From Myxococcota bacterium (GTDB lineage: Bacteria > Myxococcota_A > Polyangia > Nannocystales > Nannocystaceae): DNA of 64,000 nucleotides. A program made the translations under genes and the position numbers. The DNA lies in assembly GCA_039028615.1 (NCBI GenBank), contig JBCCHT010000041.1, forward strand, positions 1 to 64,000. Direction: 5' to 3'. Positions 54,250 through 60,312 of the stretch are shown here, in pieces (the first letter of the stretch is position 1; every line of letters starts with the position of its first letter). The notes beneath the pieces were generated by a model. That model was given only the letters and a program-made list of their open reading frames with translations, did not search any database and was not told the DNA's origin.

Positions 54250-54399
54250 CGGCTCATCTCGGAAACCCTCGTGGGGTGAGAACGTGGTCAGCGTCGGGGG
54301 CTGCAGGACGGTCGTGCGACCACGAGCGTGACCCGCCCGGACTCGTTTCGCTCCAAGCGTAACCCGCCGGCCCCCGGTGCCGATCCAGCTGCGACCCTC

Positions 54400-55491
54400 A
54401 TGGCTCTCATCGACCAGTCCTTCTCCCTTCGCTGCGGGCTCGAGGTGCCTCAACGCATCGCGATGGCCCCGCTGACCAACATCCAGAGCGAACCGGATGG
54501 CACCCTCGGGGAGCAAGAGCTGCGGTGGCTCGTGCGACGGGCTCGGGATGGCTTTCGCTGGATCAGCACCTGCGCCGCGTTCGTCAGCGAGGAGGGCCAT
54601 GCATGGCGAGGGCAGCTCGGAATCTCCAATGACGCTCAGCTACCGGGGCTCCGCCGGCTCGCCTCCGCGCTGCGGGGCCACGGCGCGGCGGCGGTCGTGC
54701 AGCTGCACCACGGAGGTGCCAAGGCGGACCTCGCTCCCGACCGTCGACTGAGCACTGCGGACGGAGGCCCCCAAGACAGCCGCGGCGCCTCCGAGGCCGA
54801 CATCCACCGCGTCATCGAGGACTTCGTGGCCGCCGCCCAGCGTGCCGAGCACGCCGGGTTCGCGGGCGTGGAGATCCATGGCGCCAACGGCTACCTGTTC
54901 ACGCAGTTCCTCGCCCCCGAGGACAACCCCCGCACCGATGCCTACGGCGGTGACCTGCCGGGGCGGGCGCGCTTCCTTCGGGAGACGCTCCGGGCCGTCC
55001 GAACCAGCGTCAGCCCGGGCTTCGCGGTGGGCGTCCGCATCTCACCCGTCGACGTGTGGAGCCGGCGGGGGCTCGTCCTCGCCGATGGTGTGCAGGTGGG
55101 CCAGTGGCTCGCCGACGACGGAGCGGACTTCGTGCACCTGTCGCTCATGGACGCCGGCGGTCCCGCCCCCCACGAGCCTGATGCCGGTCTCGTCGCTCGT
55201 GCGTTCCGCGACGCGCTGCCCGGCGACGTGCCGATCTTCGCCGCTGGCGGCATCTGGACCCGCGAGGACGCGCAGCGGGCCACCGAGGCCGGCGTCGACG
55301 TCGTCGTGCTGGGTCGAGCCGCGATTGCCCACCCCGACTGGCCGAGCGCCTCGGCCGACGCCAACTTCCAACCCGCGCGCCCCGTGTGGTCACGGAAGCA
55401 CATGCAAGAGGTCGACGTCGGTGACCGCTTGCTCGAGTACCTGGGCGGCTTCCCGGGCATGCTCGAAGGTGGAGCGCCCCCCCGGGGCTAG
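54400..55491 (+). CDS. NADH:flavin oxidoreductase (old yellow enzyme family)
   Basis: RIAMAPLT, VQLHHGG, GFAGVEIHGANGYL..QFL...N.RTD.YGG, GVRISP, LGRAAI. Confidence 0.93.
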   Translation: MALIDQSFSLRCGLEVPQRIAMAPLTNIQSEPDGTLGEQELRWLVRRARDGFRWISTCAAFVSEEGHAWRGQLGISNDAQLPGLRRLASALRGHGAAAVVQLHHGGAKADLAPDRRLSTADGGPQDSRGASEADIHRVIEDFVAAAQRAEHAGFAGVEIHGANGYLFTQFLAPEDNPRTDAYGGDLPGRARFLRETLRAVRTSVSPGFAVGVRISPVDVWSRRGLVLADGVQVGQWLADDGADFVHLSLMDAGGPAPHEPDAGLVARAFRDALPGDVPIFAAGGIWTREDAQRATEAGVDVVVLGRAAIAHPDWPSASADANFQPARPVWSRKHMQEVDVGDRLLEYLGGFPGMLEGGAPPRG

Positions 55492-55528
55492 CGGTCCGCC
55501 GCCGCCCGGCCCACGATTGCGAACAGGG

Positions 55529-55813
55529 CTACGGTCCGATCAACGCCTGGGTCGACAACACGGAACCGGTCTCGGGATCGAGCACCGCCACCACCAGGTG
55601 CGTCTTCACTCGGCGTTCGGTGAGCAGCACGATGAGCCCCTCGGGCCCGACGAACGCCTCGTGGGGCTCGGGCAGCGTGCCCTCGAATTCGTGCTCGGCC
55701 GGTCGCATCGCGTTCACGGGGGTCGTCCATCGACGACCACTGCTGCGGGTCGAGCGGGTGATTCCAACCCGTTGCGCGACCGCGTCGATGGCTGAGGTGC
55801 CCACGACAGCCAC
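55529..55813 (-). pseudogene. Possible gene fragment (beta-propeller-like C-terminus)
   Basis: ...LVVAVLDPETGSVLS resembles a PQQ-type blade. No convincing start, and the frame is closed shortly upstream. Confidence 0.25.
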
Positions 55814-55928
55814 CGCGCCCGCCCGTACGAGCGCGCCTACGAAATACGCGGTGTACCTCGAGAGTGGGCAACGCGGCCGCCGTCGGCGGGGACCACGTCA
55901 TCTCCTCGCGATGGTCTCGAGATGAGCG

Positions 55929-56615
55929 TCAGGCCTGGCCGCGCTTGGGTTTGCGACCACGGTCCTGCAGCGCGATCAGGCGACGGAACAAGCCCGGTCG
56001 GTGCAGGACCGAGGCGCCTCCCAACAAGGTGAGGGTAGCCGAGTACAGCGCCTCGTCTTCGAAGCCCGGTCCGTTGGTCCGTCGACGGGCCCACGACTCC
56101 AGCGCGACGAAGAAGCCATCGTGGAGTCGACGACCGAGGCGCACGGGATCGATCTCGAGCTCCAACGCGCCCTCGGCCCGCGCTCGCTCGAGCAACGGCA
56201 GGGCCATCTGCTCCGCCCGCAGCATCGCGGGCAGCGATGAAGCGCCGACCTGCCCGCGATGCTCGTGCACGGCCAACGCGAGCGCACGAAACGAGGGCGC
56301 GTCTTGCCGGGCGAGTCGCACCGCGGTTCGGGTCCTCTCGAGGATCGCCTCCAGGGGGTCGGCCGCGTCGACGAGGTGCGCGGTGGCGGTCGCGAGCCGA
56401 CCGAGCCCGTGGTCGACCAGCGCCCCGAGCACCGCGTCGCGATCGCCGATGAGGTTGTAGATGGTGTTGACGCTCAGCCCCGCCTCGTCGGCGAGCTTTC
56501 GCATCGACAGCGCCGCGGCGCCTCCGTTCGCGACCAGCGTGCGCGCCCCGGCCATGATCCGCGCCCGTCGATCCGCCTGGCTGCGCTGAAGCTGCGTCGT
56601 GCCGTCGCTGGCCAT
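55929..56615 (-). CDS. TetR/AcrR family transcriptional regulator
   Basis: RARIMAGARTLVANGGAAALSMRKLADEAGLSVNTIYNLIGDRDAVL HTH. Confidence 0.92.
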   Translation of the reverse strand: MASDGTTQLQRSQADRRARIMAGARTLVANGGAAALSMRKLADEAGLSVNTIYNLIGDRDAVLGALVDHGLGRLATATAHLVDAADPLEAILERTRTAVRLARQDAPSFRALALAVHEHRGQVGASSLPAMLRAEQMALPLLERARAEGALELEIDPVRLGRRLHDGFFVALESWARRRTNGPGFEDEALYSATLTLLGGASVLHRPGLFRRLIALQDRGRKPKRGQA

Positions 56616-56666: not shown

Positions 56667-57239
56667 TCAGGGCTCGTTGGGGGCTTCGTCGGCCGCGGGC
56701 ACGCGCTCCAGCGCGCCCGGCAACGCCGGCAGCTCGACCACTTCGCCCTCGAACGCCTGGTCGAGATCGACGAAGCGCATCAGGTTGGTCCCCTGCCCGA
56801 TCGCGGGCCACGAGGGCAAGGGCGCCCGGGCCTGGCCCTGTTCGTCGAGCATGTGGCTGCGGTCGGTACACAGCGTGGCTCGGTAGCGCGCGGCGGAGAT
56901 CACTCGGCACCGAGCGGTGAACGGCGCCTCGAAGCCCGCGGGAAACGCCAAACTCTGCCGCAGGTAGATCGACATCGGCACGGGCATGCCGAGGGTGGAG
57001 TCGACGTCCCAGATCATCCACCCCGTCGGGCCGCGTGCGGCCATTACCACATGGTAATCCCAGACTACGGGCTGCTGAGGGGCAGGTGCGGCGCGTTGGT
57101 GCATCACCGCCACCGTGCGCGACGAGTTGGAGATGAAGATCGCGGCCCGCGGCTGCCCCTGCACCAACGGGTCCGCACACATCTGCCAGACGTTCTCCTC
57201 GCAGTAATAGGGCGCGGGCGTGAAGGATGGAGTGGTCAT
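56667..57239 (-). CDS. Protein N-terminal glutamine amidohydrolase homolog (WDYHV/NTAQ1 family)
   Basis: YYCEENVW, FISN, VVWDYHV, WDVDSTL..P, DRSHM, P.P.WP.I, NL..F.D in the order seen in NTAQ1; ATG 57239. Confidence 0.88.
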   Translation of the reverse strand: MTTPSFTPAPYYCEENVWQMCADPLVQGQPRAAIFISNSSRTVAVMHQRAAPAPQQPVVWDYHVVMAARGPTGWMIWDVDSTLGMPVPMSIYLRQSLAFPAGFEAPFTARCRVISAARYRATLCTDRSHMLDEQGQARAPLPSWPAIGQGTNLMRFVDLDQAFEGEVVELPALPGALERVPAADEAPNEP

Positions 57240-57379: not shown

Positions 57380-58318
57380 ATGCCACACCAGCTGTGGGCA
57401 ACGTTCAGTGTCAAAGACCATTGTCGGCGGGGTTCGTTCATCGCGGAGGTCCTGCTCTACGACAAGTTGATCATCCCGGTCGTCCCGAAGGCCGAGGATG
57501 GCCTGCCCGAGGAAGAGGCCACCAAGGAATGGCAGCGGTGGACGGACAACGGGTGGGACCCCGAGCGACAGGACCGAGTCGTGGCGATCCTGGGAGACCT
57601 CGCCCGCCCGGTTCCCTGGATCCGAGAGCGCCAGGACGAATGGCAGCAAGAGAAAGTGCAGCAAGTGGCCGCCGATGCGCGCCGCGATGGCTATTTCATG
57701 ACCGGGACCGTGCTGGAGCGCTTCGCCCCAGCCATGGCCGAGACGGTGGTCGCGGTGTCGCACTACGACGACGTCGAAGCGCTGAAGCGAGGGCAGCACA
57801 TCCGCCGCACGACGCCCGAAGACAAGCTGCCTGGTAGCACCGTACTCGCCGTCCTCGGCCGTGAGTTGCTGGTGCCCGATCACGTGGGCAAAGACGACTT
57901 CGGCGCGCTGGAGGACGCGGTCGAGGTCGCTCGCACCACCGACTATCGCCAGCGTCGACGGTTGCTCTACGAATGGCAGAGGGACTTCATCAAAGACGGA
58001 GACTTCACCGACGCGACCGCGGTCATCGAAGCCGTCGAACACATGAAGACGCTCGTCGCCGACCTGGAGGAAGCCACTCGGCGCGCCAAACGATGGACCA
58101 CGATCAAGAAGATCTTCTCGTTCTTCAAGCTCGGCACGAAGGTCGCCTCGGTGACCGCGCCCGCCCTGGCTCCGATCACCAAGGGCGCAGAAGTGGTGGT
58201 GGACATCGGCACCTTCGCCGCGAACGCAATGGACAACGACCCGGTGCCGAGCGACGAGGGGCTGCCAGCCGCGACCTTGCTGCTCGATGCACGGCAACGG
58301 CTGGAGATCGAACAATGA
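57380..58318 (+). CDS. Hypothetical protein
   Basis: 312-aa ORF from ATG 57380 with GGAG upstream; WATFSV.DH, LLYDKLIIP; no family confidently recognised. Confidence 0.8.
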   Translation: MPHQLWATFSVKDHCRRGSFIAEVLLYDKLIIPVVPKAEDGLPEEEATKEWQRWTDNGWDPERQDRVVAILGDLARPVPWIRERQDEWQQEKVQQVAADARRDGYFMTGTVLERFAPAMAETVVAVSHYDDVEALKRGQHIRRTTPEDKLPGSTVLAVLGRELLVPDHVGKDDFGALEDAVEVARTTDYRQRRRLLYEWQRDFIKDGDFTDATAVIEAVEHMKTLVADLEEATRRAKRWTTIKKIFSFFKLGTKVASVTAPALAPITKGAEVVVDIGTFAANAMDNDPVPSDEGLPAATLLLDARQRLEIEQ

Positions 58319-60312
58319 GCGAGCGCGAGACCGTCGTGACCCTGTCCTGTCGAACCATGGCCGCGTGCCTCCCCTGCGTCGTGCTCGGGTGCGCACAACC
58401 GGAGCTCGACCCCGAGGTGGGACCAGCCCCGCAGGTGCAGCCCGATCTGCCCGAGGACCTGTGCGTGACCCCGCTGTCCGCCGACGAGCCCTACTGCAAC
58501 TCGAGCCTGGCCGATGGGCCCTGGGCCATGTCGCATCGCACGAGCTACGCCCAGGGCTCGTCGCCGCTGCCCGCCCCTGCCGCCGACGCAGTGAGCACGG
58601 CCGCCCGCCAGCAGGTGCCGGGCATCCCCGTGGTCTTGGCCACCACCGCGCCCTACGAGGACGGCGGTCGGGCGATCTGGGCCGCGGTGCAGGGCTTCGA
58701 CAACGCCATCGCCAAGCTGGATCACGAACGCTTCGAGATGGTCGACATCTACGTGCCGGCCGAGCGCGAGGACGACCCGCCCATGATCCCGCTGGGACTG
58801 ACGGGGGCCTACTCCCTCGTGGATGCGCAGGGGCGCTTCGTGGTGGCGCGTGCCCGGCTGCTGTCGCGCTACGGCGACGAAGTCCCGGGCCAGCGCGACT
58901 CGGCCATCGCCCTGCAAGACCGCACCACCCTGCCCGACGCGTGGTTCTGCACGGCCGACGATCTGGTGGCGGGCATCGGCCTCGCCTACGACGGCGCCCT
59001 CATCCTCGTCACCGAGCAGGGCCAGGTCATCGCGGTCGACGAAGGCCCCGAAGGCCTCGACCAAGCGGGAGCTCGCATCGCCTCGATCAACGGCCCGCGC
59101 TGCACCGACGGCACGCCCGCCGAAGAGCTCGAGGTCGTCTCCAACAACGTGGCCATCGACGAGTCGGGCGGGATCTTCGTGGTCTCGAGTACCTCGATGC
59201 ATCGCTTCGACCACCGCGACGGGACCCTGCAGCCGCGCTGGTCCGCGCCCTACGAAGGGGAAGGCAACCTCAGCCCGATTCGGCTCGGGCCGGGCTCGGG
59301 CTCGACCCCCAGCCTGATGGGTACACGCGCCGACGAGGACCGCTTCATCATCCTCACCGATGGCCAGCAGCTGATGCACCTGGTGTTCATGTGGGCGGAC
59401 GACATCCCCGAAGGGTGGACCCCCATCGCCGAGGGCAAGGACCCGCGCATCGCCTGCGAGGTGCCCATTCGCTTCGGCGACGCTTCGGCCACCGACTCGA
59501 TTTCCGAGCAATCGGTGCTGGTCCGAGGCCACGCCGCGGTGGTGGTCAACAACCTGGTCACGGACCCCACGCTGCTGGACGGAATCGCGGCGATTCAGAA
59601 CGTGGTGACCGCCCTGGAGAGCGGCGTCCCGGACAAGCAACCCTTCGGCATCCAGCGCGTCGACTGGGATCCCGAGGCCCGCGATTGCGTGGTGACCTGG
59701 GAAAATCCCGACATCAGCATCCCCAACGGCATCCCCACCATGAGCACCGCGACGGGGCTGTTTTATGGCATCGGCAAGCGCGACGGCGCGTGGGGCCTGG
59801 AGGCGGTGGACTTCGAGACGGGGCAGTCGCGAGGTTTTTCGCCCACCACCACGCAGTGTCCCGAGGACTACGCCGCGTTCGGTCCCGCCGCCGCGATCCC
59901 GGAGGTCGTGGCCGCGCTGCAGGCCGAGCCGCAGTACTGCGAGAACTCGCTGTACGCCGCGACCACGGTGGGCCCCGACGGCATGATCTACACGGGCACG
60001 CTGGGCGGCATCACCCGCTATGTGCCCGACACGGTCGGCGAAGCGAGCGTGGAGAGCCAGGTCGCCGGGGCCTTGGCTCAAGCCGACGACCTCATCGGGC
60101 GCGCGCAGCAGGGGGCCGATTCACAGCTCTTCGACGCGACCGAGGCCATGCAGCGCGCGCTGCTCCAGGTGCGCGAGCTCGGAGCCCTGGAGCTCGACGA
60201 AGACACCGAGGCCACCCGAGCGGAGGTCGAGGACGCCCTGGTCGTGGCCCTGCTCACCGAAGACGAGGCCGAGCGCGAGCAGGCCCTCGCCCGCGCCCGC
60301 GAAGTGCTATGA
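58315..60312 (+). CDS. Hypothetical lipoprotein, probable beta-propeller
   Basis: VLG-C lipobox; repeated beta-strand motifs (SNNVAIDESGGIFVV, GSGSTPSLMG, TVGPDGMIYTG); ATGA overlap. Confidence 0.75.
   Translation: MSERETVVTLSCRTMAACLPCVVLGCAQPELDPEVGPAPQVQPDLPEDLCVTPLSADEPYCNSSLADGPWAMSHRTSYAQGSSPLPAPAADAVSTAARQQVPGIPVVLATTAPYEDGGRAIWAAVQGFDNAIAKLDHERFEMVDIYVPAEREDDPPMIPLGLTGAYSLVDAQGRFVVARARLLSRYGDEVPGQRDSAIALQDRTTLPDAWFCTADDLVAGIGLAYDGALILVTEQGQVIAVDEGPEGLDQAGARIASINGPRCTDGTPAEELEVVSNNVAIDESGGIFVVSSTSMHRFDHRDGTLQPRWSAPYEGEGNLSPIRLGPGSGSTPSLMGTRADEDRFIILTDGQQLMHLVFMWADDIPEGWTPIAEGKDPRIACEVPIRFGDASATDSISEQSVLVRGHAAVVVNNLVTDPTLLDGIAAIQNVVTALESGVPDKQPFGIQRVDWDPEARDCVVTWENPDISIPNGIPTMSTATGLFYGIGKRDGAWGLEAVDFETGQSRGFSPTTTQCPEDYAAFGPAAAIPEVVAALQAEPQYCENSLYAATTVGPDGMIYTGTLGGITRYVPDTVGEASVESQVAGALAQADDLIGRAQQGADSQLFDATEAMQRALLQVRELGALELDEDTEATRAEVEDALVVALLTEDEAEREQALARAREVL

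Follow-up and report, generated by a model that had tools for sequence, protein, structure and literature searches.

The window analysed here is a stretch of 64,000 nucleotides (positions 1 to 64,000, forward strand, of contig JBCCHT010000041.1) from a marine Myxococcota bacterium of the family Nannocystaceae, whose assembly, GCA_039028615.1, measures 12.3 Mb and is 96.7% complete and 1.8% contaminated. On the minus strand of the window, at 56667..57239, lies a gene of the NTAQ1 family (PF09764) of N-terminal glutamine amidases, encoding a stand-alone protein of 190 amino acids plus stop, P0001. All five motifs singled out by a first-pass annotation of this stretch are present in the translation: YCEEN (residues 12-16), FISN (35-38), WDYHV (60-64), WDVDS (77-81) and DRSHM (126-130). 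The codons at 57198..57203 specify Cys13, the nucleophile (human Cys28), and Glu14 (human Glu29), a residue engaged in a water-mediated grip on the alpha-amino group (PMC4214742, PMC11168063). The substrate-binding strand V58-V59-W60-D61-Y62-H63 (human V76-I77-W78-D79-Y80-H81; PMC4214742), which includes the catalytic His63 and in which W60, D61, Y62 and H63 are invariant, is encoded at 57051..57068, and the catalytic Asp78 (human Asp97; PMC4214742) at 57006..57008. The DRSHM motif occupies 56850..56864, its His129 and Met130 corresponding to two human residues in contact with the substrate N-terminus, His148 and Met149 (PMC11168063). Asp78 and the DRSHM motif are invariant in an alignment of 49 sequences.

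The residues C13, H63 and D78 align in phmmer with the catalytic triad of human NTAQ1, Cys28-His81-Asp97 (PMC4214742), so the Cys-His-Asp triad is intact, as the annotation had proposed. The human enzyme holds the free alpha-amino end of its substrate with E29, D79, Y80, H148 and M149 (PMC11168063); the corresponding residues E14, D61, Y62, H129 and M130 are all kept in P0001, and across the 49 sequences four of them never vary, and E14 is conserved to at least 90%. The family assignment made at first pass is confirmed by the Pfam profile PF09764, which P0001 matches with 135.2 bits (E=2.6e-39, profile positions 3-177 of 184) against a curated cut-off of 27 bits, and by a phmmer match to human NTAQ1 (PDB 4W79) at E=4.6e-23. 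An AlphaFold2 model of P0001 (predicted local distance difference test, pLDDT, 95.5) retrieves in Foldseek only human NTAQ1 among its top matches, with template modelling (TM) scores of 0.77-0.81 and E values of about 1e-15, while the next fold, a protein-glutaminase, follows at TM 0.36. With human and mouse NTAQ1 (WDYHV1, C8orf32; PF09764; PDB 4W79, 3C9Q, 6KGJ, 8JJF-8JK2) P0001 has in common the single-domain size, the fold (TM 0.81), the triad, the VxWDYH strand and the five substrate contacts, although identity in the structural alignment is only about 31%. The two also differ in setting: the host of P0001 is a bacterium without the ubiquitin-based Arg/N-degron route, and the next step would fall to Bpt, ClpS and ClpAP instead of ATE1 and UBR.

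The motifs CE[ED]N and WDYH occur together in 253 of 261 homologs checked, and in 238 of 258 motif-bearing homologs the catalytic cysteine lies within residues 1-30, at a median position of 13. This position favours the ATG at 57239 over the TTG at 57401 as the start of the gene, and with the nucleophile as early as residue 13 there is no space for a signal peptide, leader or pro-region, in agreement with the earlier remark that a signal peptide is missing. By every feature that can be tested in the sequence P0001 is a member of PF09764, whose proteins appear to be stand-alone and leaderless, and it is predicted to be cytosolic. A scan for promoters and terminators found nothing.

The gene is native to its bacterial host. 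Its GC content at third codon positions (GC3) is 0.87, against 0.81-0.86 in four nearby genes; the annotation had considered contamination unlikely from codon style, and both synteny and the tree agree. The closest named homolog (66%) comes from Paraliomyxa miuraensis and is called protein N-terminal glutamine amidohydrolase at NCBI, as might be expected from the guess that bacterial homologs were already annotated. The usual order in Nannocystaceae is an alpha/beta-hydrolase gene, the amidase, a converging enoyl-CoA hydratase (ECH) gene and then tsaB. The alpha/beta-hydrolase gene lies closely upstream on the same strand in 26 Nannocystaceae loci, some of them duplicated (L005-L024 and relatives among them), and this link is absent in the window. 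P0001 nests with Nannocystaceae in a tree of 91 sequences (LG+G4, bootstrap unsettled, no outgroup; one sequence, L071, excluded for absence of the WxYH motif) with support of 100/97 and 100/98. In the same unrooted tree 17 eukaryotic domains, a thin sample drawn from long or merged gene models, make up one side of a modestly supported branch (70/91, and 72% of bootstrap trees). Contamination and recent capture are excluded by synteny and phylogeny; the suggestion of a gene exchanged with eukaryotes fails as a recent event, while on any ancient direction of transfer the unrooted tree is silent.

Several features of the surroundings may be added. A flavin oxidoreductase (OYE) gene, a small open reading frame (ORF) and a TetR gene, at 54328-56615 of the window, separate the amidase from the enoyl-CoA hydratase gene; this block had no match in 128 related loci and looks like an insertion, to judge from the comparison of loci. 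On the plus strand the ORFs 57380-58318 (~312 aa) and 58338-60312 (~657 aa) have no Pfam match, and the latter begins with a lipoprotein-like leader.

The most probable chemistry of P0001, in our analysis very likely the correct one, is that of a Cys-His-Asp amidase turning an exposed N-terminal glutamine (Nt-Gln) into Nt-Glu. A protease cut would expose Nt-Gln; the WDYH strand, together with the conserved E14, H129 and M130, would grip the free alpha-amino end; and C13, by analogy with human NTAQ1, would attack the side-chain amide, ammonia leaving and Nt-Glu resulting. The host genome encodes proteins that could act on such a product. The annotation had proposed looking for bpt, aat and clpS, and all three are present, along with a clpA-like ORF. 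A single-copy bpt is found on contig C52 (C52:34803-35561; ATE_C 123.9 bits; NCBIfam PRK01305.2-3 306.7 bits against a cut-off of 170), one copy of canonical aat with the GESMF motif on C2 at ~577.2-578.0 kb, and clpS, directly followed by the clpA-like ORF, on C33 at ~35.5-38.3 kb, clpA having been assigned by reading of the ORF, without a profile. All of them lie on contigs other than that of the amidase. The host bpt is preceded by an alpha/beta hydrolase and has an arginine deiminase-family gene immediately downstream (L002:1159-3252, on G000:C52). A search for NTAN1 in the host genome gave no match, and the controls of the same search were also empty.

The Bpt of Vibrio vulnificus adds Leu to Nt-Asp and Nt-Glu (PMC3692480, 10.1101/2021.07.26.453911, PMC9351520). 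By analogy, the host Bpt would leucylate the Nt-Glu left by P0001, ClpS would bind the resulting Nt-Leu, and ClpAP would degrade the protein. We assign a probability of about 0.55 to this predicted route from Gln through Glu and a Leu-capped end to ClpS-ClpAP. Should amidase and Bpt act in one cytosol as proposed, Gln would be a tertiary destabilising residue in this bacterium, whatever selects the gene elsewhere. The host resembles the Leu/N-degron system of V. vulnificus, in which Aat serves Nt-Arg and Nt-Lys and Bpt serves Nt-Asp and Nt-Glu ahead of ClpS and ClpAP (PMC3692480, 10.1101/2021.07.26.453911), in having bpt, aat and clpS-clpA. It differs in having a predicted Nt-Gln amidase, which would give a tertiary tier to a pathway described, in the portions of these two papers available, as having primary and secondary destabilising residues only. 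Within the order bpt is present in 40 of 40 amidase carriers and in 30 of 33 non-carriers, which is weak support given this background.

Among the new evidence, a Gln tier in bacteria is best supported by a fusion and an adjacent gene pair that appear to tie the amidase family to a predicted next-step transferase. A search for longer amidase forms returned 59 proteins. P0126/P0321, named as Achromatium sp. WMS3, carries PF09764 at residues 8-169 and PF03588 at 249-419 in a single ORF, which is free of stops on its contig (L162:1501-2883; G442:C92:7750-9129). The genome that carries it, G442, has canonical aat and clpS; classic bpt gave no match there, and ATE_C only one that is weak and below threshold. 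When metagenomes were scanned with the alignment of the fusion, a contig emerged (L238:1791-3200) on which a gene for a 179-aa amidase is followed, 18 bp later and in the same direction, by a gene for a 283-aa atypical transferase; pair and fusion are 42% identical overall. The fusion partner and the separate transferase score 82.6 and 89.6 bits against PF03588, and the atypical transferase reaches 47 bits against the aat equivalog, whose cut-off is 143.55.

In E. coli Aat, E156 and Q188 bind Nt-Arg/Lys, and M144 lies in the hydrophobic donor pocket (PMC4964394). In the atypical transferase these positions are changed to Leu (E156), Gly (Q188) and Glu (M144), so that by sequence comparison it is a member of the Aat fold family without the acceptor site for basic residues. 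Its relatives (10 proteins) include one named arginyl-tRNA-protein transferase by JGI and one from EukProt, and none from Plasmodium; its Atlas clusters are bacterial PF03588. Plasmodium ATEL1 is reported (Graciet et al. 2006) to be an Aat-like enzyme that arginylates Nt-Asp and Nt-Glu, and the link to the present proteins is a lead. The likeness lies in the amidase partner of P0126 and L238, a PF03588 protein far below the aat equivalog and without E156 and Q188; the difference is that the host genome has no atypical transferase, and the donor and acceptor specificities of the bacterial proteins are ones we infer. A broader scheme is tentative and less likely than not. In it bacteria would run both front steps of the eukaryotic Arg/N-degron pathway, Nt-Gln to Nt-Glu and then a partner transferase (Bpt adding Leu in the present host, the Aat-fold enzyme adding Arg in Achromatium and L238), with canonical Aat leucylating the Arg for ClpS (Gln, Glu, Arg-Glu, Leu-Arg-Glu), and eukaryotes would have inherited NTAQ1 from such a module.

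The family is widespread in bacteria. It is present in 40 of 73 genomes of the order and in 31 of 251 genomes sampled from the phylum, and a pattern scan of GTDB gave 469 candidate stretches, 452 of which, from many phyla, were confirmed as amidase loci. The 80 confirmed loci kept for closer study include Myxococcota, Planctomycetota, Melainabacteria, Chromatiaceae and other Gammaproteobacteria, as well as Acanthopleuribacteraceae, Lentisphaeria, Bradymonadales and Spirochaetales. A profile search gathered 3001 amidase clusters at 50% identity, eukaryotes included. Among viral contigs 100 pattern matches yielded no confirmed copy, and the plasmids searched held none. Two loci were rejected as extensions of the range: L077 (Oligoflexales by label) and L034 (Bathyarchaeota by label) share 95-96% DNA identity with Melainabacteria and gammaproteobacterial loci, and both contigs are probably misbinned. 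No operon context is conserved across phyla, the neighbours belonging to heterogeneous families (141 of 165 representatives scanned). An FHA-domain gene stands directly upstream of the amidase, on the same strand, in four loci (L030, L036, L048 and L092).

A number of observations weigh against the Bpt-fed route. In the host genome the atypical Aat-fold transferase was not found. The transferase-linked cases are two and possibly represent one event, and the amidase occurs at only 1 of 80 atypical-transferase loci, 57 of which have at least 900 bp of upstream sequence. The long bacterial forms number about ten with the fusion included, and the others join the amidase to UDPGP, ABC permease, PrmA-like, MMACHC-like or FMN-reductase domains, so that a fusion by itself is noisy evidence. 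In ~150 loci, leaving aside the two linked ones, the amidase has no aat, bpt or clpS next to it. A bpt-type gene is present in 10 of the 31 phylum carriers (eight with classic bpt, two with a long paralog only) and in 61 of 220 non-carriers (Fisher p=0.67), ATE_C being found in 71 of the 251 genomes. Across phyla, 35 of 50 carrier genomes, representing 50 of the 80 kept loci, have ATE_C over the cut-off; the genome of L077 remains counted among the other 15. The complete chromosome of Sulfidibacter corallicola combines amidase, aat and clpS with no ATE_C match. The profile of the atypical transferase, run on the 21 carriers that lack Bpt and on 15 more genomes lacking it, met canonical aat or nothing (best score at most 69 bits, compared with 315 for the fusion), and among 46 genomes it matched its own type in G442 alone. 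The profile of the long paralog matched the same 71 phylum genomes and none more, and 0 of 10 further Bpt-less carriers.

Since the amidase does not track bpt in the phylum, a Bpt-fed tertiary tier cannot be the only role of the family, and the strongest sign that the degron account is incomplete is that most phylum carriers lack Bpt. A complementary distribution, with each carrier using Bpt, the atypical transferase or the long paralog, was considered and is ruled out in the genomes searched. The downstream components show a different pattern: clpS is present in 31 of 31 phylum carriers and in 184 of 220 other genomes (Fisher p 0.011), and an aat match in 31 of 31 carriers, one weak and one in pieces, and in 178 of 220 others (Fisher p 0.004), both p values being overstated because kin are not independent, and the counts being confounded by kinship and genome size. 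The tertiary Gln-to-Glu branch suggested at first pass is thus upheld in part: bpt, aat and clpS-clpA in the host and a transferase fused or paired with the amidase elsewhere speak for it, and the lack of tracking with bpt across the phylum speaks against it.

The long Bpt-like paralogs (~350 aa; L222-L227, L230, L232-L235) form a family that matches ATE_C weakly and bears an unnamed C-terminal extension; 23 of the 251 phylum genomes contain strong matches to it, and most of these genomes also have classic bpt. The fusion-carrying genome encodes a protein of 254 aa (L237:1084-1848) whose ATE_C match is below threshold, a possible third Bpt-like family, judged by its sequence. As for the other fusions, those with an ABC permease domain (PF00528) form two clusters (P0143 and P0144), as do those with UDP-glucose pyrophosphorylase (P0122 and P0123), and the PrmA-like methyltransferase fusion is P0121, a PrmA-like gene also occurring separately, downstream of the amidase, in four loci.

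The alternative that survives best, though it falls well short of even odds, keeps the same chemistry and gives it another purpose. Nt-Gln cyclises fast, and by removing the amide before a pyroglutamate forms the enzyme would serve end-repair or peptide recycling, keeping prey or turnover peptides open to aminopeptidases, so that any coupling to Bpt would be incidental. Two thirds of the phylum carriers lack a detectable acidic-end transferase, as this explanation would allow, and the pyroglutamyl peptidase family PF01470 is found in 21 of 31 phylum carriers compared with 80 of 220 other genomes, a difference confounded by family (22 of 24 genomes in family f15, for example). The fusion of the amidase to a permease domain in two clusters would suit peptide recycling, as would single neighbours such as PCMT, asparaginase_2, gamma-glutamyltranspeptidase and a DPP IV domain; these repair-type neighbours, however, are scattered single cases. 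PF01470 has no match in the host genome, clpS and aat are kept in every phylum carrier, and the transferase fusion and the adjacent pair are left unexplained. The degron and end-repair explanations are compatible with each other.

It is unlikely, by comparison, that the amidase always feeds a degron pathway and that the Bpt-less carriers rely on a canonical-looking Aat able to accept Glu, or on some second-step enzyme or adaptor that escaped the profiles. The analysis brought up no fewer than three families resembling acidic-end transferases (classic Bpt, the long paralog and the atypical Aat-fold type), in addition to the 254-aa protein with its weak likeness to ATE_C, so that there may be others, and the universal presence of clpS and aat among the phylum carriers would fit. 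Yet all three profiles came back empty in the Bpt-less carriers, and the 254-aa protein as a single query matched 0 of 5 genomes in a search without a positive control. Among 29 Aat loci inspected, 25 gave motif matches, and the Glu of [GA]ES[MC] is kept in all 25. In the Bpt-less carriers, 28 aat loci showed no recurrent transferase within ~1.5 kb of the gene.

A shift of the bacterial proteins to another substrate, be it an internal Gln, a small amide or a metabolite, is quite improbable. The heterogeneous neighbourhoods would accommodate it, and the nearest other fold, the Chryseobacterium protein-glutaminase (PDB 2ZK9, 3A54), is likewise a bacterial Cys-His-Asp deamidase of protein Gln. 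That enzyme differs from P0001 in being an exported pro-enzyme without the WDYH grip on the N-terminus, whereas P0001 has neither leader nor pro-region; structural agreement between the two is low (TM 0.34-0.36, 10-13% identity), the fold of P0001 being far nearer to NTAQ1, and the residues gripping a free N-terminus hardly vary, if at all, among the bacterial homologs. Eukaryotic contamination or recent capture, which the characterisation of the family only in eukaryotes in the literature surveyed might bring to mind, is hardly credible for an intronless gene with bacterial neighbours on both sides and matching GC3, present in more than half of the genomes of its order (the 40 of 73 given above), with shared synteny to ECH and tsaB and the well-supported place among Nannocystaceae described above.

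Bacterial members of the family are already named in public databases, and the surprise is in function and evolution, not in existence. A search of titles and abstract openings, with subscription papers outside it, found no functional paper on a bacterial NTAQ1, and the supplements of PMC10318531 and PMC11441550 may list bacterial members. In the portions available, PMC11441550, PMC10318531 and PMC13478464 mention NTAQ1 as a eukaryotic enzyme only, and the string 'bacteri' is absent from the text of PMC11168063. Nt-arginylation is described as absent from bacteria in the available part of PMC9351520.

If NTAQ1 is active in hundreds of bacterial species, a tertiary tier would be added to the bacterial pathway and the N-degron rule would be extended to Gln. 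The fusion points to a possible Arg-adding step in bacteria. That so many carriers have no known enzyme for the next step would mean that Nt-Gln deamidation has a second role or that a transferase is yet to be discovered.
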